A stretch of DNA of 64,000 nt, taken from a phage. Made by a program: the position numbers and the translations under genes. Shown here piece after piece: positions 14,401 to 58,092 of the stretch. The stretch is taken from the NCBI GenBank assembly GCA_012646185.1, contig GCA_012646185.1_4706.1. One strand, written 5' to 3'. The first letter of the stretch is position 1; the number at the start of each line of letters is the position of its first letter. The notes under the pieces are model-generated. The model was not told the DNA's origin. It was given only the letters and a program-made list of their open reading frames with translations, and did not search any database.

Positions 14401-15290
14401 TCATTTTCTCCATTCTTATCTTGGTCGCAATCACACTCTTCGACGTCTTTCTTACTTAAACGTAAGACACCGAGTGCGGCATGCTTGAGTTCTTGCAACG
14501 CGCTTTTCAGCTGACCTTCTTCATCGAAATCAAAATACTTCTCGTTGTAGCTTAATGCTGGAATCATATTTACGAGAGGTTCGATGGCGGGCATCAGCAT
14601 TTCAATGACGACCTTAGGATCAACAAAGCGTTCAAACCCTTCAGGAAGTTTGCTCGCTACAACCTTATCGTTTTTGATGTAGAATTTGTTCTTGAACAGA
14701 TCGTCAAGAATAGCGTTCTCTTCATCCGTACGTTTTGCGTGAGGACGATCGATCATCTGTACAAACACACCATTCAACGCTTCAGGCAACGTCGGATTTT
14801 CACGAAGATAAGTTCCAGCCGGAATTTCAATATCGATCTTCGTCCACTCAACAACCTGGTGGTCTCGTGTGTAGATGACGTCAACTTCCCACGCCAGGCC
14901 ATCAGCGCTTTCTACGGTGTAACGTGTTTTCGCCTGGCCTTCAGGAGCCATGCGTTCGATCGCGTCAAACATCTCGACTGGAATTTCGACTTCGCTTTCC
15001 GTTGCATCACCTGGACCACGATACACCTTCGTGGTCATGATGTATTTCGGCTCTTCGTTATCGATCTGGATCGCACGTGCGCGCACCTGACCTTTCACAC
15101 CACCAACGGCTGTGTTATCAAACAACCATTGATGTTGCACCATATGTTCGATTTTTGATGCGACTTGACGAAGACGTTCAACACCGTCTTCAGCCAGTTT
15201 ACCAAAGAAGACCAGCTCACGTTCCTGCTGTGTCTCACCACTTAACATCATTAAATTGGCGATTTGTTTCACGCCTCTTACTTGTGACAT
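14397..15290 (-). CDS. hypothetical protein
   Basis: 297-aa ORF. Confidence 0.5.
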   Translation of the reverse strand: MSQVRGVKQIANLMMLSGETQQERELVFFGKLAEDGVERLRQVASKIEHMVQHQWLFDNTAVGGVKGQVRARAIQIDNEEPKYIMTTKVYRGPGDATESEVEIPVEMFDAIERMAPEGQAKTRYTVESADGLAWEVDVIYTRDHQVVEWTKIDIEIPAGTYLRENPTLPEALNGVFVQMIDRPHAKRTDEENAILDDLFKNKFYIKNDKVVASKLPEGFERFVDPKVVIEMLMPAIEPLVNMIPALSYNEKYFDFDEEGQLKSALQELKHAALGVLRLSKKDVEECDCDQDKNGENE

Positions 15291-15358
15291 ACATGCTCCG
15301 GTTATAAGGGCCTACATCGAGGCCCCTCATTGATTTTTGATTCCACCAAACGCTATCG

Positions 15359-16933
15359 TTACAATTCAAAATCTTCATCGATAACACGCTGGGTAAGCAC
15401 TTTGTCGCTGAAGAACTCCACCTTGCGCTGATGGTATTTACGGTGCGCTTCGATAGAAGTACATACCAGATACCAGAACGTTGGCGTCATTCCTTCAAAC
15501 TTCCCTTTCAGCTGACGCAGTCGCCCCAACACCTGAATGTTGCCGGTTCGTGACCCCATCGCTAACGTCATGAACGTCATCACCAAGTCAGGGAGGTCGA
15601 TACCTGTACCTGCCGATTTCACCGTCGTAACGCTAATATCGTTATCCAGCAAGACCATGAAATCTTCTTCAGCAGTATAAGGACCGATCTCTAGCTCAGG
15701 AATACGCTCACTGAGATAGTGCGACAACGACTTACACATATCAACGGTTGCACAATACACCAGCATCTTCATGCCTTCCTGATACTGGTTCATGAAACCT
15801 TTGATGATAACGGTATAGATGAAGTTAAAATACGCGAGTTTGAGTTGCTTGTTCTTCATGATAGACTGTTCGAATATCGTGTGTGAATAAGCTCCGCCAA
15901 ACCCTTTGTATCTGACTTTATCTGTACTGCGTAGTCGATATGTTACCGCATTTACCGCAATATATTTCTTGTATTCGCCTTTTGCATAACGGGCTTCTTT
16001 CGGATACATCAAATACAACATCTGTTCGATAAACGGATCATCGGACACCGCCGTTGCCGACAGATAAATGATTTCCGGAATACTGGCGTAACACTTGACC
16101 TTAAACAAGAAATGCAATGCTTCGTGACACTCGTCATGAATCAGCAAACCTATGCCGGTCTTTTCCCAAAACTCAGCGGGATGAAAGGCATATGGCGCAA
16201 CGCAGTTATTCTTCTCGTAGTCCGCAATATAACGTTGGAACATGTTCAAGGAGAACAATGCGATTTTGAAGTCGAGCTCACCTTGTTCAACCAAGGTTTG
16301 AAACTCCAGCATGCTGTAACGAGGAATGTCGGGATGTGGTGGATCCTCCTTAGCGTTCCCGCGTATCTCAATAACGTCCCCTGGTTCCATCCCGAAGAAG
16401 TTCAGCAGTGAGCTTCGCCAACCTGGCATGTATCTCGGCGACAGAATGATACCCGTCCGTACACCACGTCGGAAGGTAATCTCCTGCGACATGGCCGTTT
16501 TTCCTGACCCCGTTTGAGCGGTGTTTAGGCTCATTCTGAAGGGGGTATCCTTACCCCCGTCCATGTACTCCAACCATTCTTGCTGATCTTGACGCCATGG
16601 AAACTTCCATTTCTTTACGAACTCCACTTCTTTACCTGGTACCGGATCGTGATAGACGATTTCCAACCACTCTTTTCGTATCCCTCGGGAAAAGATAAAA
16701 TCCAAAAACGATTTCAACTGTTCACGGAGTAAGTATACCTCGCTATAATCGCTTCTCGCCGCGGCATACGTGTTTATGGTATCGGTAACCATTCTCCGTG
16801 TACGAGGGTCACGCCGTTTCCTCAGATGCAAACAACGGTCTCGAAGGTAATGGCCTATCAAATGGGCAAATCGAAGTCCGTATCCGCTCAGCCTCATGCC
16901 ATGCGAGAAGACGTCGATACGAGCTAACTTCAT
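15359..16933 (-). CDS. SF2 DExH-box helicase
   Basis: 524-aa ORF; Walker A AQTGSGKT, motif II IHDECHE, SAT, motif VI QVLGRLRQ. Confidence 0.65.
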   Translation of the reverse strand: MKLARIDVFSHGMRLSGYGLRFAHLIGHYLRDRCLHLRKRRDPRTRRMVTDTINTYAAARSDYSEVYLLREQLKSFLDFIFSRGIRKEWLEIVYHDPVPGKEVEFVKKWKFPWRQDQQEWLEYMDGGKDTPFRMSLNTAQTGSGKTAMSQEITFRRGVRTGIILSPRYMPGWRSSLLNFFGMEPGDVIEIRGNAKEDPPHPDIPRYSMLEFQTLVEQGELDFKIALFSLNMFQRYIADYEKNNCVAPYAFHPAEFWEKTGIGLLIHDECHEALHFLFKVKCYASIPEIIYLSATAVSDDPFIEQMLYLMYPKEARYAKGEYKKYIAVNAVTYRLRSTDKVRYKGFGGAYSHTIFEQSIMKNKQLKLAYFNFIYTVIIKGFMNQYQEGMKMLVYCATVDMCKSLSHYLSERIPELEIGPYTAEEDFMVLLDNDISVTTVKSAGTGIDLPDLVMTFMTLAMGSRTGNIQVLGRLRQLKGKFEGMTPTFWYLVCTSIEAHRKYHQRKVEFFSDKVLTQRVIDEDFEL

Positions 16934-18936
16934 AACGTGATTACATCCTCCGGTTTAGGTTCTTTACGCGGTAACAGCATGTAGTCGATCGGATGATCTG
17001 GCTTCATGGTTGGGATATAACTGTTCGGGTTTTGGAACGCATCCAGTTGCTCTTGGTGAGCGAACTTCATACTCAAGGAGCGCATGTTCATGTTCTTCTT
17101 GAAGGTACTGAAGTATCGTGTTGTTCCCTGTTTCGGCATGCGATAATCTTTCGTGTGCGGCGAACGAATCATGCTGGCGTAGAGAATAACATCGAGATGC
17201 GAAAGGTTCATTCGCAGACGCTGAGCGCACAGACGATGCCAATAGTACAGCACGTTTGCAACTTCTTCCGGCGTTGCTTCGTCTTCCGAGAGGAATCCGG
17301 CACTGAAAGAACCTTTCCCGAATTTGAACTCACGTTCGATTTCTTTTGCGTATTCCATCATGTTTTTGTGGATTAACGGCATCTGGAATAACGTACGTGA
17401 ATTGTCCCAATGTTTCAAGTCGAAAATCACAATCCCGTCAGGCGTCACTTCCCAGCTATGGCGTTTAAGATAACGGATAAACGCTTTACTCGGTACAACA
17501 GGACGACCGCAGAAATCGAAATTGACTTTGAGCTTACGATAGCTTTCATCTTTCCTGTCGTAAATCTCCATATCGCAAAGCGTCATGTTGAACAGACGCT
17601 GTGGTATCAGCGAACTGATTTCTTCCGCTTCGGCTACGTCGTACAACATGTTAGCAAGACCTAACTTCATCTTAATCAACACGTGTTTACCTTTCAGCTC
17701 ACGTGCGAGTTTGATGTCGTTCATGTTCTGGCTGTAGCGAAGGATATGCTGATATTCCGGTGGGATTGGTGCTGTAGAGACCGTTGACGAACCATCGTGG
17801 TGTTTGGTAGAAAGAATGTTCTGCGTTACCTGTTGCGAGCAGGTACGCGCTGCACCATCGCCGACATTATCAGTCAATGCGAAGTTATGACTTAATTCAC
17901 CGTAACACGTTGTACATACCCCAGCAGGATCGGGATGATGACAATAGTTAACGGAGCGCATGCGTACCGTCGTGCCGATCAATTCTTTCATGTGTGGTTG
18001 TATCGCTACCAACGAACCGTCGTCACGAATAATGAATCGACCGTGGAAACCACGCAGGTCGGTCTCATCGCGGATTGGCATCGGGATGGTCTCTTTACTA
18101 CCACAATCACCAGGATGAAGTCGTTGTACAACCGCTGTCGCTATCTGAAGTTCACGACCGAAATATTCAGACTTTTTAATCTGCTCTTTGTTGAACAGCA
18201 ACGATTTCGCCGCAGAACGACTTTCTTTCAAGCTGTCAGGAAGAGAGATCAAACCGGCTGCGTACGACCGCATTACCGGATCGCGGAATATCTCGGAGTT
18301 AATATCAGTCAAGAATCCACGCATCCCAATACACTGTAGCACCTGCCCAATCGAAACGTGTTCGGTTCTTACCGCACGTGCGATAGGGTTTGCATGTAAC
18401 GTTTTATCGGTGCTCAGTACCTTCGTCAGTTTCTTGTATGCGCTTTCAATGCCTTCGCGGGTGGGTTCCGCTTCGGCGATGATTTTCTTAACTTCGGGGT
18501 GTACAGTAATCTGATAAAAATCATCCGCGCAAATCGTTGTTACGTATTCCTCCAACGCATACGTAAAGAAGTTATATACATTGTTAAACATATCGAACAG
18601 TGCTTTCCAGAGAACCTCACGATTCTCTTGTGGATAAGCATACATGCATTGACGATACGCTGCGCTTTGCAACGCAACCGATGAACCCGCTGTGAACTTG
18701 CGTTTATCGACCAGGTTCTCTTTTGTCAATGGTGTCTCAGGATACATGCGATGTACAGACCAGTGCATGTAACTAAAGAAAATGCGTCGCGCACGTAATT
18801 CATGAACGCCATCGTCCATCTCGATATATACACGGTCATTAGGCTGTGCCCATTCGAACACCTCATCAACCGGCCAATGCATAAGCTCGCGTGCCCTCAC
18901 ACGACGTTTCGTGGTGGTTGTCTGTGTTGTAATCAT
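16930..18936 (-). CDS. multisubunit RNA polymerase beta-prime, C-terminal fragment
   Basis: 668-aa ORF; VRMRSVNYCHHPDPAGVCTTCYGEL...GDGAARTCSQQVTQNILSTKHHDGS matches the conserved beta-prime region RS...C...GVC..CYG...GEA.G..AAQSIGEPGTQ.TMRTFH.GG. Confidence 0.6.
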   Translation of the reverse strand: MITTQTTTTKRRVRARELMHWPVDEVFEWAQPNDRVYIEMDDGVHELRARRIFFSYMHWSVHRMYPETPLTKENLVDKRKFTAGSSVALQSAAYRQCMYAYPQENREVLWKALFDMFNNVYNFFTYALEEYVTTICADDFYQITVHPEVKKIIAEAEPTREGIESAYKKLTKVLSTDKTLHANPIARAVRTEHVSIGQVLQCIGMRGFLTDINSEIFRDPVMRSYAAGLISLPDSLKESRSAAKSLLFNKEQIKKSEYFGRELQIATAVVQRLHPGDCGSKETIPMPIRDETDLRGFHGRFIIRDDGSLVAIQPHMKELIGTTVRMRSVNYCHHPDPAGVCTTCYGELSHNFALTDNVGDGAARTCSQQVTQNILSTKHHDGSSTVSTAPIPPEYQHILRYSQNMNDIKLARELKGKHVLIKMKLGLANMLYDVAEAEEISSLIPQRLFNMTLCDMEIYDRKDESYRKLKVNFDFCGRPVVPSKAFIRYLKRHSWEVTPDGIVIFDLKHWDNSRTLFQMPLIHKNMMEYAKEIEREFKFGKGSFSAGFLSEDEATPEEVANVLYYWHRLCAQRLRMNLSHLDVILYASMIRSPHTKDYRMPKQGTTRYFSTFKKNMNMRSLSMKFAHQEQLDAFQNPNSYIPTMKPDHPIDYMLLPRKEPKPEDVITL

Positions 18937-35257: not shown

Positions 35258-35617
35258 CAAAATCTTCAGTATGAATCGCTACTTCATACCCGCAGCATTA
35301 CCTGCAGCTCCTGGTGTTACCAGGATGTTGAGAGTATATCATGCCCATATTCCAAATGGAACGTAGGACTTCCGCGCTGGATCTCGCTTGAGACCACTTA
35401 CTCGTTGAACGTTCTCCTAAACGGAGCTTCGCTGCTGATTGGACATTGTTACGTACGGTAGGCGTCCCATTAAAGGGATTTTCATTGAAGCCGCGTACAT
35501 CCGTTACCTTGTTTCTACCTTATCGGTTCCTCTTACGAGGCGTAACGGCTTTAGCCTATTCCAGCAATTCACGGAATGCATATTCTCCTTTTCAGGAGAT
35601 AAGGCCATGGCTCTGGC
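35258..35617 (-). ncRNA. putative self-splicing intron 1 (ORF-less, group I-like), boundaries approximate
   Basis: About 360-nt hairpin-rich sequence between DFDGD codons and resumption of beta-prime homology; tandem relative of intron 2. Confidence 0.5.
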
Positions 35618-35632
35618 ATCACCGTCAAAGTC
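35618..35632 (-). CDS. RNA polymerase beta-prime micro-exon encoding DFDGD (proposed)
   Basis: Minus-strand codons GAC TTT GAC GGT GAT; flanked by the two intron copies; exon 1 ends ...GYNA. Confidence 0.5.
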
Positions 35633-35982
35633 CACATATCTTCAGTATGAATCGCTACTTCATACCCGCAGCATTACCTGCAGCTCCTGGTGTTACCAGG
35701 ACGGAGAGATCATCTCATCACCCACGAAGGGTGTTCCGCGCTACCCTCAGCGAATTCGAGGGACATGATCGTTGAACCTTCCACCGATAATCGGTGGCTA
35801 GGCTGCTGATTAAACATTGTACGTTGGGGTGGCATCCTGGTTCAGGACTGTCGTTGAAGCCTCCCAACATCCACTCACTTATTTCCGCCTTATCGGCTCC
35901 CATAAGGGCAGAGTGGCTTTAGCCCGTCTCAGCAATTCACGGAATTCAAGCTCTTCCTTTCAGAAGGCAGGGCCTCATCTGA
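35633..35982 (-). ncRNA. putative self-splicing intron 2 (ORF-less, group I-like), boundaries approximate
   Basis: Follows the codon for Ala of ...KGYNA (exon ends in U); RNA ends in G just before GAC of DFDGD; track ORF reads 17 codons into it then stops. Confidence 0.5.
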
Positions 35983-37233
35983 AGCATTGTATCCCTTAAG
36001 GATCATCACGCTTAACCCGATGGTGTTATCCTGCGGATCGCGTTTAACCTTGGTGATTTCAAGACATTGGTTACTGCTTCGGTCAAGTGATGGGTTTCGA
36101 ACAAAGCCGCACACAATCCCATCGAACGGCGTATCAGCAATAAGCTCATCGTGCAGCTCGCTCATCATCGGATGATAATTACGGACATGTTCCGCAACGA
36201 ACGCACGCGCTGCTCTCGGTGAGTAACCACGATGGAATAACTTGGATTGGATATGTTCTTTATTGGTTAAAGTAAATGGTGCGTATGGGAAATGCAGATG
36301 ATAATAACGATGGTTCGCTGTTATCGAACTGATTACGGTACGCGTGGTGAATGGATGTAATGTACCTAATATGTTTTTACGTGTAATACCTTTCTTCTTA
36401 CCGATGAACTCATCGAAAATCGCTGCGTGGTATTGCAGTAGCTTCAATTGCACTTTCGCCATCCAGTTTTCTTTCTTTCTGGCGCTCAAAGGTGTTGTTG
36501 GATGATAGATACTGTTCAACGTACCAATAGCATCGATCGCACCTTCCATTTTGCTATCCGCATAACGACCGGTCGGCGTATTTTCGATAACGAACATCAT
36601 GGCTGCAGGAAAGCTGATATACTGACTGAAGAACTTATCACGATGGATACGGATGAATTCTCGTAGCGTGTCAACTTTCTCCATGTTCTTCGGTCCACGT
36701 AACGTCGGTCCTTTATACAAGATCTCCATGATGCGATCGAAGTTCTGTATAAAGCTATTTACGCCACGCCGTATCCCGAATACATCGAATTGCTGCTCCA
36801 GATAGTTCTTGAGTTCGATGGGTCGTTTTACATTTGGACGGTAACTGGCATCAATGAGCCACGTCATCGTTTCAAAGCTTTTGATATTCAACTCGCTTGC
36901 CAGCACGAGATGGACCAACGGGTTAATGAACGCATCGATTCCTTCAGGAACGCGCGCCCAAACCGTCGAACGAATCTCTTGTTCTGCTGGGTAGGTTACA
37001 ACCGTTTTACAGTTTGGACACACCGTGCCGAGTAGCTCACCACGATTGTAGAAACCACAACCACATTGTGGTGTGATATCCAACGTATCGCTGGAGTAAA
37101 CACGGGTGATAAAACTGTTTAATTTCTTCTTCTCTTCGACGACTTTTGTATCGTAATCATTCAACAAAATCGGCGTGAAAGGAAGTTCTGCGAGCTGTCT
37201 ATCGAAACTCACGATATCGAGCATGATGGCCAT
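35983..37233 (-). CDS. RNA polymerase beta-prime N-terminal subunit, exon 1
   Basis: Zn-finger CGCGFYNRGELLGTVCPNCKTVV (compare CxCGKY...C..CGVEV); NPSLDRSS (compare NRQPSLHK / NRAPTLHR); IGLSVMILKGYNA (compare LNLSVTSPYNA) immediately before the missing DFDGD. Confidence 0.65.
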
Positions 37234-42865: not shown

Positions 42866-42893
42866 AACCGATCCAGCCGAAGCCAGATCGGTT
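42866..42893 (-). terminator. rho-independent-type terminator (minus strand)
   Basis: aaccgatc...gatcggtt 8-bp stem followed on the minus strand by a U-run (plus-strand aaaaaag at 42855-42861). Confidence 0.5.
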
Positions 42894-43088
42894 AAAAAGG
42901 ATAATAACTGACAGAAAGATATCGATGATGTTCGTGAAACAAGATCTTCTCTCGTGTACAATGATGCTAGATCAGAGGGAGGTTGTAACACGAGAGGTGG
43001 TCCGCCAAAGAAGGAATAAAAACACGAACCTATCTTATTTCACTGATGGCACTAACCACTCAAAATATATAGTACTGTATGTAAAAGT

Positions 43089-43502
43089 TTACTGATTAAT
43101 CAAGTCGTTAGCAACAATCTTGGTGTAACCCGCCTGATTAAGAATTTGATTAATTTTCGTCACGTCGGTCGCATCCTCAATAACGATGCTGGGTTTATAG
43201 ATCAGCGTCTTGGTAACGACGATTGTACTCTCCTTAATCCAAGGAATCCCTAGAATCACATACTCGCCGTCGGCTGTAATGACCTCGACGTAATTGTATT
43301 TCGTCGGATCGTTCGGTACACTAGACGGGAGCCGGGAATAAATCTGTTGGTGAATGGCATCTACATCACGACCGTTACGTACAGCTGTGCGATAATTGTA
43401 CACAGCGCTAATTTCTACTCCGTTGAAGTTAACCCCAAGTTCTGGGGCGTACACATCAAAACTCACAACAGAGCCAATCTTTTCTAAATCAGAAGCTGGC
43501 AT
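43089..43502 (-). CDS. hypothetical protein
   Basis: 137-aa ORF. Confidence 0.45.
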   Translation of the reverse strand: MPASDLEKIGSVVSFDVYAPELGVNFNGVEISAVYNYRTAVRNGRDVDAIHQQIYSRLPSSVPNDPTKYNYVEVITADGEYVILGIPWIKESTIVVTKTLIYKPSIVIEDATDVTKINQILNQAGYTKIVANDLINQ

Positions 43503-53923: not shown

Positions 53924-54028
53924 TGCATTGCCTTCCGCGAGTGTAATCAGGAAGGTAATGTAGGTTTATTTTAATCTCCATTTCGCGATGATATGACAGT
54001 CTTTATTACGTTTACCATCTGAGGGAGC

Positions 54029-55273
54029 ATGCTCATGTCTTCTATTTTACAGGTGTTTAATGCGCATGCGGAAGGCATTGACATCGACGAGTATTTTGTT
54101 AATCAGGTTATCCGTTACGCGACACGCTTCCGTACGCAAGACCAAGAACACATGCGTTTTTTCGGTGGGGTTCTGTTAGGTGTACAGAAAATCCGATTCA
54201 CAACAAGACATAACGATACATGGTTTTCCGACGTCTTGATGATGGATGAAGAAAGCTTACGGCGCGATTTGAGTAAACTGCCCTTCTACAATACGCAGAC
54301 CAACCGTGTTGCCTCAAACGCCTTTAACCTAAGTTGCTGTTGGTTGCTTTATGCGATCTTCCACAGCAAACAAATCAAAAAAGAAAAGGTTCGTGAAGCC
54401 GGGATGCTTGCAGCAATGCAAGTCCTCCATTATAAATTCATTTGCGGTCTGGTAGCACGACGTTATCCTTATAACGCCGATCCGGCTATCGCCATTAAAG
54501 CGTACGATGAGTTAACACTCAAATCAGGCATCAAGCGCATGAATAGCTGGAATGAGTACATCGACGAACGCTGTAATGCCATCATTGCGCGTAATAGTAC
54601 ACATTTCAGTCGTTGGTCAACCCTGGAACCTGATAGCGTCGCCGAACGTTTTGTGCGTGATGTGAATACCGGAATCCGTAAGGTTATCAACCGTATCACC
54701 GATACGTACTACGCGATGTACGAAGAAGGTAAGAAGATAGGCACGTCTTCTCAAACTGTAGAGTTAGACGATGGTCTCGCTGTTCGCGATATTAAACGCA
54801 ACGAAACCACTTATCGTCAATATCTGTTCGAAATCGCTTATGACCGAACAAGTTTCGTTAAACGTGAACTCATGGTCGTCATCCTCGACGTGCATCATAC
54901 TACCAATCTTTTATCCCTTGAGCGAGCGTTAAGCTATATCAGCGCTAACGTAGAACGACCGACAAGAGACGGAAAACAGGTCTCTCAGATGTTGCGGCTT
55001 GTAATGGAGCATGCTATCGAGTATATCATCTTGAATAAGGTCGATATGCGCGATCTTACGTTCTTATTCTACATGCGTAACGTGTACACGTCCAACCGTA
55101 CCAGCAACCCGAAACTGTTAGAACTGCGTAAAATTGGCTCTGAAGTCATTAAGAAAGCAACCAATGCGAGAAACGACGCTGAAGCTGCGGCGACACGCAC
55201 CGGTGTCTTTCTGTATATCCTGCTTCGTGTGTTTAGCCGTAACTATTACGTTCGACGTGCGATGTCACGTTAA
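54029..55273 (+). CDS. hypothetical protein
   Basis: 414-aa plus-strand ORF; gagggag before ATG. Confidence 0.5.
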   Translation: MLMSSILQVFNAHAEGIDIDEYFVNQVIRYATRFRTQDQEHMRFFGGVLLGVQKIRFTTRHNDTWFSDVLMMDEESLRRDLSKLPFYNTQTNRVASNAFNLSCCWLLYAIFHSKQIKKEKVREAGMLAAMQVLHYKFICGLVARRYPYNADPAIAIKAYDELTLKSGIKRMNSWNEYIDERCNAIIARNSTHFSRWSTLEPDSVAERFVRDVNTGIRKVINRITDTYYAMYEEGKKIGTSSQTVELDDGLAVRDIKRNETTYRQYLFEIAYDRTSFVKRELMVVILDVHHTTNLLSLERALSYISANVERPTRDGKQVSQMLRLVMEHAIEYIILNKVDMRDLTFLFYMRNVYTSNRTSNPKLLELRKIGSEVIKKATNARNDAEAAATRTGVFLYILLRVFSRNYYVRRAMSR

Positions 55274-55425
55274 CAATGTAACGGTAAAACTTTACTGACG
55301 TTGGTTATTATTTGAAGCATAGGGCTTCACCCAGGAGTACCATCCCTTTAAGTCGTTTGTCCTCTCCTGGTTAACTGTCGTTCTCTCACAGTGCTCGACA
55401 GACCAAAAATGCTCAGGCCTCATAG

Positions 55426-55454
55426 CCTCCTCTGGGAATGGAACCCAGAGGAGG
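55426..55454. terminator. perfect 11-bp stem-loop cctcctctggg-aatggaa-cccagaggagg between convergent genes
   Basis: Inverted repeat in the 190-nt non-coding region. Confidence 0.5.
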
Positions 55455-55466
55455 ACTATGTTTGCC

Positions 55467-55787
55467 TTAAAATTCAATGCGACCTTTTGTCGTAAACAAT
55501 ACACCTCTTTGCCAACAGAAAAGATCCTCCGATTGAGCGCAAACACGAATACCCGCATCGAATAGATGTTTTGTTCTGGCGCTTAAACAATCAGGATCTT
55601 CTACATACAACAGAAGACGTTGGCATTTATTTTGAATGCGTTCGACAAGGATGTTCTTATCGCTTAAAATAAAATGCGCGTTATCTGTTAAGTTATCGTC
55701 GGTTTCCAGCTGCCCGACAAGTTTGATTAAAATACGCAATTGCTCAAGTGTGTCATGATCAAGTGAATCACCCATGGCGTACCTCAA
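55467..55787 (-). CDS. hypothetical protein
   Basis: 106-aa ORF. Confidence 0.4.
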   Translation of the reverse strand: MRYAMGDSLDHDTLEQLRILIKLVGQLETDDNLTDNAHFILSDKNILVERIQNKCQRLLLYVEDPDCLSARTKHLFDAGIRVCAQSEDLFCWQRGVLFTTKGRIEF

Positions 55788-55860
55788 CGTTATACGTCGT
55801 TTGTATTATAATACGCTATCGTCTCCCCGCCTGTATTAACGGGGAGTCTGCAAACTACTC

Positions 55861-58092
55861 TTAGAAAAAACCGCCCGGACGGTATTGACCCATCGTCATC
55901 CACGCATTACGAGAAATATTCCGTTCATTCGAAGAGCGGCTTATTTGACGATAAGTATTCGCTCGTTCCTCCCTTGCTTTCGTGATCATCGCATCAATAG
56001 AAACAGCCGCTGAATCCTCCCCACGTATTTTTCCTTTATACGTAAGAAGCTCTGCCTCCAATCGATCCAAGATAAGGCCGTTGGTTTCGGTCTTAAGCAA
56101 CTCATAGATTTCAGCAACGCGTTGACGTAGCTTCGCCTGCTGTTGGTTAAGATACGCTTCATACGGATCGATTTCACCCGTTACAGATGCTGGTAAACGA
56201 CTCATGACTTTAAGTGGATCGATACCGTAATGGATCTGTTTCTTAGCACGCTTGATGAACCACATCGCTAACATCCATGCGAACGTCATGTCATCGTGCA
56301 TTCCATCCTGGTGATCAACACGCCCATCTTTGATAACCAATCCAAGGATCTCGGAACACAACATCTTATCACGTAATTGCCCGCGGGTTTCTACAATACC
56401 TTCCATCAAGATGTCGGAATACAACTCCATACGTTTGCGTGCATCCGTTGTGAAGCCTAAATGCCGTTTACGTTGAGCATACCAACTTTCATCACGCATA
56501 CTCAATGGTAATTTCAGGTCTTCGAACATCGCTGGGTTATCAGCATGTCTGTCCACAATCGTGTTGTATACGCGTTTGAACACGTCGATGCCCGCTTGCC
56601 GCAAGAACTCTTCAATCGCATCTAACAACATGATTGCGCTGCTTTTACGTTCAGGAATCAACGTAACGTTCTTAAAACGCATCATGAAGTTGGCCATCCA
56701 ACGAGCAAAAGAAAGCAGGCTCAGTTTATTAAAACGTCCCGTCGCGACAACTTCTGCTGTTTCCACATCCACCATCACCAAACCGATAGCGTCACGACCG
56801 ATCGCGTCACTGGTGTCTAAACCAGCAACCACCTTATTGTTCTGCATGTATGTCTCGATTTGACCTCGAGGTATATACCAGTTGATGCAGTAGCCTTCAG
56901 GTGAGATCTCGATATGGTCGATTTCACGTTGTCCTGCCATGATCATCTCAACCATCTCAGCGGTTAACGGGCTTTCTGCTGAACCGTTGGTCCAGATGTT
57001 CATGTAGTCGCGGTCTTTCTGAAGTTTATCACCTTCCGTTTCGTTCATGGTTTTTGCTAACCATTCATCACTGAATCCCAATTGGGCATGGTTCCATTGT
57101 GCCCCGATCCTGACGGTCGCTTTGCTGAGCTCGCACGGTACGTTGTTCAATACCGTCTGATGCAGATGCTTTTCGTTACGGCAGTCAAAGAAACTTTCAG
57201 AGAACGGCGCTGAACGCATGAAAACTTCATAAGCCCATTTGCCTTCGCGTTTATCCAATTCACCTGCTGTTGTCGTATAGATGATACTTGTCAGGTCGCC
57301 GTTGCTTAATGCTTCATCGCGTGCCGCACCCATCGCACCGATACCAGCAGGAACAATAATTTCGATGTATTTCGTAAACGCGGTTTCGTCGCTATGGAAT
57401 AGCGGGGTTGTTAGACCACGACCGATGTTTGTTGCTTGTTTCTTATCCGAACGTGGAATCTTTACCGATAACTTGTTCTTAAACCGCGTGTAGGTCACGT
57501 TCTCTTTGTTCGATGAATCGCGACTATCCAGCGTCCAGAGATATGCAGGCAACAGATCGCGTATACTACGCACGTCTTCTACCGTTTTCGTACGGGCATC
57601 ACCGTCTTTTGTTAACTGAATAACCTCGGTGTTTCGACTACGAACATAGGTTAGATAACAGAACAACCCTAACATGGTCATGGATTTACCCGTCTGACGT
57701 ATCTGTATCTGATACCAGTTCGTTCGGGTAAATATCCCCCAGAGCATCGGAATGTTACCACGGTTAGCACGGAATGAAATTTTGTTATCACCCGCTTTAG
57801 CCGGAACGCGCATCACTTCACGGAAGAAGTACCATGGATTAAGATAGCATTCCGCACTGATCATCTGAATCTGTTCTGACGTCAAATTCGGTGCGTGGGG
57901 ATCAACACCAATCAATCTTGGGTTTAATAACGCCATGAAAAACGCAGAGTTCCGGACACCGAATTCACGACGATACAAGATCGCTAAATCACGCCAACTT
58001 GTGTTTGTTGTTTCCCAGTGTGGAACAGCCTGAGGAAAATAATCCCAATCTTCCTCAAACAGGATGATTTTCTTCGGATCGACAATCGACAT
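55861..58092 (-). CDS. terminase large subunit (ATPase plus nuclease)
   Basis: 743-aa ORF; Walker A-like IRQTGKSMT, nuclease-like GLDTSDAIGRDAIGLVMVD and C-terminal VDHQDGMHDD. Confidence 0.6.
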   Translation of the reverse strand: MSIVDPKKIILFEEDWDYFPQAVPHWETTNTSWRDLAILYRREFGVRNSAFFMALLNPRLIGVDPHAPNLTSEQIQMISAECYLNPWYFFREVMRVPAKAGDNKISFRANRGNIPMLWGIFTRTNWYQIQIRQTGKSMTMLGLFCYLTYVRSRNTEVIQLTKDGDARTKTVEDVRSIRDLLPAYLWTLDSRDSSNKENVTYTRFKNKLSVKIPRSDKKQATNIGRGLTTPLFHSDETAFTKYIEIIVPAGIGAMGAARDEALSNGDLTSIIYTTTAGELDKREGKWAYEVFMRSAPFSESFFDCRNEKHLHQTVLNNVPCELSKATVRIGAQWNHAQLGFSDEWLAKTMNETEGDKLQKDRDYMNIWTNGSAESPLTAEMVEMIMAGQREIDHIEISPEGYCINWYIPRGQIETYMQNNKVVAGLDTSDAIGRDAIGLVMVDVETAEVVATGRFNKLSLLSFARWMANFMMRFKNVTLIPERKSSAIMLLDAIEEFLRQAGIDVFKRVYNTIVDRHADNPAMFEDLKLPLSMRDESWYAQRKRHLGFTTDARKRMELYSDILMEGIVETRGQLRDKMLCSEILGLVIKDGRVDHQDGMHDDMTFAWMLAMWFIKRAKKQIHYGIDPLKVMSRLPASVTGEIDPYEAYLNQQQAKLRQRVAEIYELLKTETNGLILDRLEAELLTYKGKIRGEDSAAVSIDAMITKAREERANTYRQISRSSNERNISRNAWMTMGQYRPGGFF

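Follow-up and report, generated by a model that had tools for sequence, protein, structure and literature searches.

The gap between gp224 and gp223

Positions 55274-55466 of the window (the whole 64,000-nt stretch of phage DNA that was analysed) form a 193-nt gap separating the stops of two convergent ORFs, 54029..55273 (+) and 55467..55775 (-). Over 2.5 kb around the gap the sequence shares 98.6% identity with that of Escherichia phage vB_EcoM_Goslar, a jumbo phage of the Chimalliviridae that forms a nucleus and has a genome of 237 kb, and the 341 nt centred on the gap, gap included, are 100% identical to Goslar. Window positions 55305-55466 are Goslar 188,982-189,143. The features of the locus are listed below in window coordinates; hairpins A, C, D and E are the four that the minimum free energy (MFE) fold places before the terminator.

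54029..55273, + strand: homologue of Goslar gp224, the upstream gene and presumed source of the parental mRNA
55274..55303, + strand: hairpin A, a palindrome directly after the gp224 stop codon
55284-55295: promoter-like palindrome GTAAAACTTTAC, a GTAA-N4-TTAC copy forming the inner stem of hairpin A
55313..55329, + strand: hairpin C, stem TGAAGC/GCTTCA, 5-nt loop
55331..55370, + strand: hairpin D, 7-bp stem CCAGGAG/CTCCTGG, 26-nt loop with a conserved UAAG
55375..55401, + strand: hairpin E, stem CTGTCG/CGACAG, 15-nt loop
55386..55397, + strand: 12-nt motif TCACAGTGCTCG, lying partly in the loop of hairpin E and partly in its 3' arm, a candidate recognition surface or seed; as RNA UCACAGUGCUCG, with the E-loop written UCACAGUGCU or TCACAGTGCT
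55415..55467, both strands: predicted terminator T, a perfect 11-bp stem at 55426-55454 (inverted repeat I1) plus outer helices
55421-55460: family hairpin within T, with outer helix CATAG/CTATG
55415-55418 with 55464-55467: outermost 4-bp helix of T (A55415-U55467, G55416-C55466, G55417-C55465, C55418-G55464), abutting the gp223 stop codon
55467..55775, - strand: gp223, the converging gene, 102 aa
55861..58092, - strand: large terminase gene gp222, upstream of gp223

Both flanking genes are hypothetical in the Goslar annotation and neither matched Pfam. The gp224 product is conserved among chimalliviruses: a tblastn search brings up 291 jumbo-phage records with homologues about 30% identical to it, some records annotate its relatives as virion or head structural proteins, and it matches PHROG 2921. 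The gp223 product had no PHROG match and occurs in the phage database in Goslar alone, with 98-aa homologues in sister lineages; its gene is the last of a leftward block that starts with the large terminase gene.

A sequence-only reading of this DNA had described the region as structured, non-coding and longer than a terminator needs. This was borne out. ORF stops close the gap on either side, and 12 other convergent gaps in Goslar measure 51-83 nt, each consisting of a single long hairpin. Only three Goslar convergent gaps exceed 193 nt (279, 295 and 819 nt). The excess over the 51-83-nt norm, some 125 nt, lies before T and holds hairpins C, D and E, referred to below as the module. The covariance-model scan that the same reading proposed as a check drew a blank, no Rfam family matching the gap: searches of 54000-57000 with the Rfam 15 models gave no match even at E ≤ 10, and in the whole window there was none at gathering score. 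ARAGORN found no tRNA or tmRNA.

Predicted bidirectional terminators at convergent gene ends

T adjoins the gp223 stop codon and lies 142 nt downstream of the gp224 stop. Its sequence is CATAG-CCTCCTCTGGG-AATGGAA-CCCAGAGGAGG-A-CTATG, and the perfect 11-bp stem claimed for it is present (55426-55436 paired with 55444-55454 around a 7-nt loop). Inspection of the Goslar genome yielded a family signature to which this hairpin belongs: CATA, a polypyrimidine arm (for example CCCTCCTCC), a loop that is often AACCCGTAAGGGAA, a polypurine arm and TATG. A strict pattern scan of Goslar returned 12 copies including T, of which 11 scored as intergenic, mostly at convergent gene ends; the twelfth follows the last gene at the genome end. 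Words of this family are the most intergenic-enriched k-mers in the genome. The inner part of T, TGGG-AATGGAA-CCCA, is atypical for the family.

Variation among close relatives bears on how T may work. In relative L004 the outermost helix carries the compensatory pair G55416A and C55466T, while the T loop is inverted in L026 and the entire hairpin in L024; these inversions fit an element that works in either orientation. On the + strand the tail ACUAUGUUUG passes a simple terminator scan with a weak U-tract (UUUG); on the - strand there is a U5 run, but only behind a second short hairpin. A U-run behind the stem on each transcribed strand is a feature of canonical intrinsic terminators. By its place and its family signature T would be a standard bidirectional hairpin terminator of Goslar-type phages, of a known kind and not part of a special RNA. 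It occupies the 3' third of the gap, where it would stop transcription arriving from gp224 on the + strand as well as from the terminase-gp223 unit on the - strand.

This assignment has parallels in related phages. Experimental mapping in 201phi2-1 gave 132 terminators, of which 15 are bidirectional, and phiKZ has motifs in common with them (PMC11512511). Like these, T is a GC-rich stem-loop at convergent units and a member of a recurrent, sequence-conserved family in its own genome; the Goslar signature, however, was derived here and is set beside the Pseudomonas phage motifs by description, and termination at T is predicted.

How much of the gap's folding signal belongs to T? The whole gap folds on the + strand to -66.8 kcal/mol (z = -4.45, with 0/200 dinucleotide shuffles as good) and on the - strand with z = -3.38 against dinucleotide shuffles. 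The terminator hairpin alone gives z = -5.4 (+) and -6.5 (-) and bears most of the signal, whereas the middle three hairpins C-D-E (96 nt) give -2.0 (+) and -1.7 (-) in Goslar; hairpin A gives -2.6. The sequence-only reading had named two strong hairpins, and this description holds for T but not, thermodynamically, for the ccaggag/ctcctgg hairpin. The latter does exist (hairpin D, arms 55331-55337 and 55364-55370), but, with the three middle hairpins folding at an unremarkable z-score, its reality rests on conservation and covariation.

Conservation, covariation and strand of the C-D-E module

Close Goslar-like genomes (L003, L004, L022-L026) were collected from IMG/VR and metagenomes. A protein search with gp224 added three further clusters at 67-69% identity, whose contigs represent two more lineages. 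The better sampled of these, here called the L008 type, is a sister lineage with 10 distinct variants and a gp224 product 69% identical in amino acids to that of the Goslar type. Its gene order is: gp224 homologue, two hairpins, equivalents of C, D and E, a U-tract terminator, a 65-aa ORF, a predicted bidirectional terminator of the family type and the gp223 homologue. The 65-aa ORF is conserved and has two transmembrane segments; family searches with it were uninformative. The third lineage, a single contig (L019), has a 65-nt gap with the terminator only and no module, so that the module is dispensable for this phage type.

The module was sought more widely. A terminase search gave only the Goslar cluster and one cluster at 67%, then fell to ≤41%, with no lineages between; no distant DNA homologues beyond Goslar were present among 50,697 phage records, and a metagenome scan added close Goslar relatives only. 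Syntenic DNA comparison with other chimalliviruses was impossible because their proteins are only about 30% identical. Pattern scans of viral contigs returned only Goslar-like genomes and two chance matches in coding sequence, and E. coli genomes and plasmids showed no similarity to the module. TCACAGTGCTCG and the other module motifs are single-copy in the Goslar genome, on which ground a REP/MITE-like repeat or mobile element was rejected. The module is, on this survey, a putative new RNA motif restricted to the Goslar clade and lacking an Rfam match.

In both lineages the diversity of this non-coding stretch is below that of the flanking coding DNA. Among seven Goslar-type genomes 87/168 four-fold sites of gp224 are segregating (π 0.22), against 5/111 sites in the core at 55305-55415 (π 0.016; Fisher p = 1e-18). 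In the L008 type the corresponding counts are 119/149 four-fold sites (π 0.28) and 12/78 sites in C-D-E (Fisher p = 3e-21), with π of 0.02-0.05 in 60-nt windows of the 3' UTR; 8/12 of the variable C-D-E sites are unpaired positions. These data indicate purifying selection and hence that the module is functional and not spacer.

The comparison between lineages is a deep one: at four-fold sites of conserved gp224 codons Goslar and the L008 type are 31% identical, which means that synonymous sites are saturated. Hairpins C, D and E nevertheless follow the gp224 stop in the same order in both. The C stem GAAGC/GCTTC is identical in the two lineages, with the loop ATAGG in one and AAGACC or AAGGCC in the other. 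The D stem, CCAGGAG/CTCCTGG in Goslar, is replaced at the same position in the L008 type by CAGTAGG/CCTGCTG with an 11-nt loop; in 5/7 of its pairs both partners have changed, and pairing is kept in 100% of cells. The D stem also varies among L008-type variants, with one change from A-U to G-C and another from U·G to U-A; loop positions vary freely. Because loop lengths differ (26 versus 11 nt), strict homology of D is not proven. The E stem, CTGTCG/CGACAG in Goslar and GTCAC/GTGAC in the L008 type, encloses an identical 12-nt motif: TCACAGTGCTCG is invariant in 6/6 Goslar-type and 10/10 sister-lineage variants, that is, in 16 variants of two lineages.

A structure-fitted alignment, so called because an L008-type covariance model was used to make it, has 95% of its cells paired, compared with 79% for column shuffles and 26-48% for slid partners, and seven pairs change on both sides. 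RNAalifold recovers the C, D and E helices with a covariation term of -3.57. The comparative basis is essentially two deep lineages plus shallow variants, most both-side changes tracing to a single split. When a covariance model built from the L008 type only was run against the Goslar genome, the syntenic site ranked first with 14.4 bits, a score that is not significant (E about 1.8; an unrelated site scored 14.0).

Several observations bear on the strand. Substitutions that remain paired only as + strand G·U occur in L004, L009, L018 and L025 and, as the U·G pair already mentioned, in the L008-type D stem; in hairpin E of L025, for example, U-A has become U·G and pairing is kept only on the + strand. 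Just one substitution keeps pairing only as a - strand G·U. The folding of the L008-type module is asymmetric (z = -3.1 on the + strand versus -0.4 on the - strand), and on the - strand the module falls behind the terminator of the terminase-gp223 unit. Together the G·U bias, the folding asymmetry and the position past the - strand terminator point to a + strand RNA, which means in turn that the module would form at least the 3' tail of the gp224 mRNA.

It is in this light that the small-RNA suggestion of the sequence-only reading has to be seen. A conserved and constrained + strand structure does exist beyond the terminator, but the 11-bp stem on which the suggestion partly leaned belongs to a standard terminator and not to a special RNA; the ccaggag hairpin is conserved, though merely as one among three conserved hairpins.

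A promoter-like motif and the possible roles of the RNA

The inner stem of hairpin A is a copy of GTAA-N4-TTAC, a motif derived by comparing the upstream regions of Goslar structural genes and typically reading (T/G)GTAAA-NN-TTTACT. Goslar has 16 copies, 12 of them intergenic, though intergenic DNA makes up 10% of the genome. Nine intergenic copies lie 17-150 nt upstream of start codons. Copies precede the major capsid gene, gp030, gp069, gp145, gp213 and gp103, and others lie in the divergent junctions gp022/023, gp245/chmA and gp219/sheath; the L008 lineage has kept the copy that precedes the sheath gene, together with the whole leader. We accordingly treat GTAA-N4-TTAC as a candidate promoter-like motif. 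The flanks of the copy at 55284-55295 (AACGGTAA....TTTACTGA) match those of the capsid-gene copy in the sense orientation. Its half-sites are invariant in six Goslar-like variants, the flanks varying in a partly compensating way. No early-type TATATTAC promoter is present inside the gap.

A second orphan copy of the motif lies at window 43081-43092, where it is followed on the - strand by a structured RNA of about 190 nt, a strong terminator and then the DNA polymerase gene; the layout of promoter, short RNA and terminator therefore recurs.

In the L008 type GTAA-N4-TTAC is absent before the module. An internal promoter is therefore not an ancestral or obligatory feature of that lineage, whose module has the look of an ordinary 3' UTR.

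The reading that we prefer, at a probability of roughly one half, is that the module is a small RNA embedded in the gp224 3' UTR or else a functional tail of the gp224 mRNA, in either case placed before a standard terminator. The approximately 125 nt before T would encode a + strand RNA comprising C, D and E, with the 12-nt motif displayed in the E loop, and this RNA would form the 3' tail of the gp224 mRNA. In the Goslar types the module is probably also transcribed alone from the palindrome at 55284-55295, about 17 nt before hairpin C. Such a separate transcript, if the palindrome is a promoter that fires rightwards, would run from a few nucleotides ahead of C as far as T, giving an RNA of about 160 nt that shares its terminator with the mRNA; as the module is preceded by a promoter-like motif and followed by a terminator, an RNA of this size is a reasonable hypothesis. 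The module may act through the exposed E-loop motif, pairing with an RNA or binding a protein, the hairpins serving as a scaffold. Rightward firing of the 55284-55295 motif, accumulation of a discrete RNA and the identity of what that RNA acts on are the parts of this model that we infer.

Precedents for such an arrangement are available. [quoted passage not shown] As in these cases, the module sits on the sense strand between the gp224 stop codon and the gp224 terminator and would share that terminator with the mRNA, one short stretch is far more conserved than the rest, and there may be a dedicated promoter near the stop. Unlike them, the module is known from sequence alone, its conserved motif lies in a hairpin loop and not in a single-stranded 5' seed, its U-tail is weak, and its producer is a nucleus-forming phage that uses its own RNA polymerases and not the host's.

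Small RNAs have also been mapped in chimalliviruses. In 201phi2-1 and phiKZ they arise from intergenic regions and 5' UTRs; ONT-cappable-seq identified 11 in 201phi2-1, including sRNA005, which is conserved upstream of the phiKZ gp182 tail-gene family, and units with a terminator closely behind the start site were linked to small RNAs in that study (PMC11512511). The Goslar module resembles these in being a short structured chimallivirus unit with a promoter-like motif and a nearby terminator, and in its conserved position relative to a putative structural gene. It differs in that the 201phi2-1 RNAs are mostly 5'-UTR premature-termination products of other loci, whereas the module lies at a 3' end, occurs in the Goslar clade only and was defined by comparative analysis only.

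Hairpins at the 3' ends of phage mRNAs are a further point of comparison. The RNase III sites of T7 and the sib retroregulation element of lambda are long, near-continuous duplexes that RNase III cuts. They share with the module the placing of structured RNA downstream of a phage gene, where it could set the fate of the mRNA. Since its stems are of 5-7 bp with large loops, the module is not an RNase III-type substrate.

Does the module act within the gp224 mRNA only, or also in trans? The main rival to our reading is that it is a purely cis-acting 3' UTR, which would block exonucleases, set the half-life or processing of the gp224 mRNA or insulate it from terminase transcription. This is plausible, though less likely than not. 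The module comes after the gp224 stop, on the sense strand, in every case and in both lineages; a promoter motif is missing from the sister lineage, where the module ends at a classical U-tract terminator; and the phage encodes a 3'-5' exoribonuclease of its own (Goslar gp147). Simple protection, however, could do without a loop in which 12 nt are invariant, a terminator alone is enough for the phage's other convergent genes, the L019 lineage has the gene without the module, and the promoter-like motif is conserved in the Goslar types.

A stronger claim lies within the preferred reading, namely that C-D-E is a trans-acting non-coding RNA expressed from its own phage-polymerase promoter and acting through the E-loop UCACAGUGCU. 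We regard this as doubtful. Its partner would be an RNA or a protein of either phage or host (among proteins, for instance, one that serves in host defence or in RNA decay), or else the machinery for RNAs leaving the phage nucleus. A search for complementary targets in the Goslar genome gave chance-level matches only, and the gp224 mRNA offered no convincing site either, with no shared place in its leader or ORF for 5'-3' pairing with the E loop. The published Goslar RNA-seq and ChmC papers, supplementary tables aside, do not mention the locus. If the trans-acting reading is true, no regulatory RNA under functional constraint would have been defined in Goslar before this one, and it would be a new RNA family; if the module is an mRNA tail only, the finding is a modest one, still of use for annotation and for supplying genetic parts.

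Among E. coli phages Goslar serves as the model for those that build a nucleus-like compartment and have their own polymerases, a system in which non-coding RNAs and mRNA 3' ends are almost uncharted. What the analysis adds is an RNA module that is small, under strong constraint and easy to mutate, with a clear candidate recognition motif, together with working definitions of a bidirectional terminator family and a palindromic promoter-like motif. These are handles for transcript mapping, for Cas13- or ASO-based knock-down and for the capture of RNA partners.

It is unlikely that the locus works as a DNA element whose palindromes and TCACAGTGCTCG are sites for a phage DNA-binding protein in regulation, replication or packaging initiation. 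TCACAGTGCTCG does hold the near-palindrome CACAGTG, the large terminase gene is only about 400 nt away, palindrome A clearly belongs to a DNA motif that promoter regions also carry, and the inverted hairpins of relatives point to cruciform formation or template switching at the DNA level. Yet the stems change sequence while pairing is kept, several G·U-type changes are tolerated on one strand only, folding in the sister lineage is strand-asymmetric, TCACAGTGCTCG is single-copy, and L019 retains the terminase and gp223 genes but not the module.

Slightly less probable again is a relic, in which the module would be the leader or attenuator of the 65-aa membrane-protein gene of the sister lineage, retained in Goslar after the gene was lost. 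In the L008 contigs the module, the U-tract terminator, some 20 nt and the start of the two-TM ORF follow one another, leaving no room for a separate promoter; but the Goslar types have no downstream gene and the module is nevertheless under strong purifying selection, and no alternative antiterminator pairing is common to the lineages. A terminator/antiterminator switch was considered separately, as the 3' arm of D resembles the 5' arm of T in Goslar (repeat I2), and was rejected, this resemblance having no counterpart in the sister lineage.

Least credible of all is that nothing but neutral spacer accompanies the terminator, or that the gap contains a small protein gene missed by annotation: the thermodynamic signal of its middle part is weak and it has short ORFs of 20 aa (TTG start, +), 34 aa (GTG start, +) and 88 aa (-), but small protein genes were rejected as none of the three is conserved in the sister lineage, diversity is about 13-fold under that of synonymous sites, in two lineages, and variation in the gap follows the pattern of stems and loops and not that of codons.

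Repeated hairpins and a palindromic motif

The terminator downstream of gp224 is one of a family of near-identical bidirectional terminator hairpins with at least 12 copies across the Goslar genome (the example in the window lies at 55421-55460). The signature of the family is CATA, a CCCTCCTCC-like arm, a AACCCGTAAGGGAA loop, a GGAGGAGGG arm and TATG. Eleven of these copies were scored intergenic, most of them where convergent genes end; the twelfth is at the genome end, past the last gene. Words of this hairpin are the most intergenic-enriched k-mers in the Goslar genome, and just part of the copies are marked in the published annotation.

Two Goslar-type relatives differ here by inversion. 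L026 has the reverse complement of the terminator loop, and in L024 the entire hairpin is inverted, bulge included. Both also have an inverted centre (AACT to AGTT, equivalent to window 55288-55291) in palindrome A, the hairpin that follows the gp224 stop. At the gp224 stop, L024 is also missing 14 nt; the window carries an imperfect 14-nt tandem repeat at this point.

The inner part of palindrome A is a copy of GTAA-N4-TTAC.

GTAA-N4-TTAC copies
Window 1593
Window 39410
Window 43081
Window 55284, inner part of palindrome A
Window 63465
Goslar, 11 more

This palindrome is strongly enriched in intergenic DNA, precedes the capsid and sheath genes among others, and is found in divergent promoter regions including that of chmA/gp245. 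A lineage whose proteins are 67-69% identical retains the sheath copy. GTAA-N4-TTAC is likely to be a promoter or regulator site for the phage transcription system.

Candidate leaders and possible further non-coding RNAs

Long or structured intergenic regions
Window 42868-43092, minus strand: promoter-like motif copy, structured RNA and terminator between gp243 and gp244
Goslar 17405-17699, outside the window: unusually long convergent gap, 295 nt, after the virion gene gp023
Goslar 14972-15825, outside the window: unusually long gap, 854 nt, between gp021 and gp022

Between gp243 and the DNA polymerase gene gp244, the motif copy is followed by about 190 nt of RNA predicted to fold well (folding z = -3.4 for a 321-nt stretch at this locus) and then by a strong terminator with a U-tract, which leaves about 60 nt to the polymerase start. 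The element looks like a leader, an attenuator or a 5'-UTR small RNA. The gap 3' of gp023 has many predicted hairpins (-112.6 kcal/mol) and then a terminator of the family type, and the gp021-gp022 gap holds an orphan promoter-like motif copy; both gaps may contain additional non-coding RNAs.

Window 53969-54118 has zero diversity across seven Goslar-like genomes, with pi of 0.03-0.09 in the other 60-nt windows around it. This stretch takes in the last part of the intergenic region separating the divergent genes gp225 and gp224, plus the initial ~90 nt of gp224. Such conservation may mark a promoter, a leader or some other RNA or DNA element under constraint.

Gene content in relatives

The sister lineage (L008 type) has further genes near the RNA module, the hairpins C-D-E between gp224 and gp223.

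Sister-lineage genes
L008 5419-5616, plus strand: extra conserved two-transmembrane ORF, 65 aa; equivalents in L009-L018 and L033-L037
L014 2951-3595, minus strand: GIY-YIG / I-TevI-like homing endonuclease gene
L015 3213-3857, minus strand: the same
L033 717-1409, minus strand: the same

The two-transmembrane ORF (62 aa in L018) is flanked by the RNA module on one side and the gp223 homologue on the other, its start codon just ~20 nt beyond a U-tract terminator; Goslar types lack it. The endonuclease gene is inserted directly upstream of the gp224 homologue in part of the sister-lineage contigs and is absent from the others.

A comparison with Goslar also showed that at window 35310-36001 (minus strand) about 1.09 kb of Goslar 168113-169678 is missing. 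The missing stretch encodes the HNH endonuclease gp186, which in Goslar adjoins an annotated group I intron within an RNA polymerase beta gene. Two group I intron Rfam matches are left in the window, at 27.4 and 23.1 bits (below the gathering score of 50 bits), and the window phage seems to have the intron region but to lack the homing endonuclease that belongs to it.
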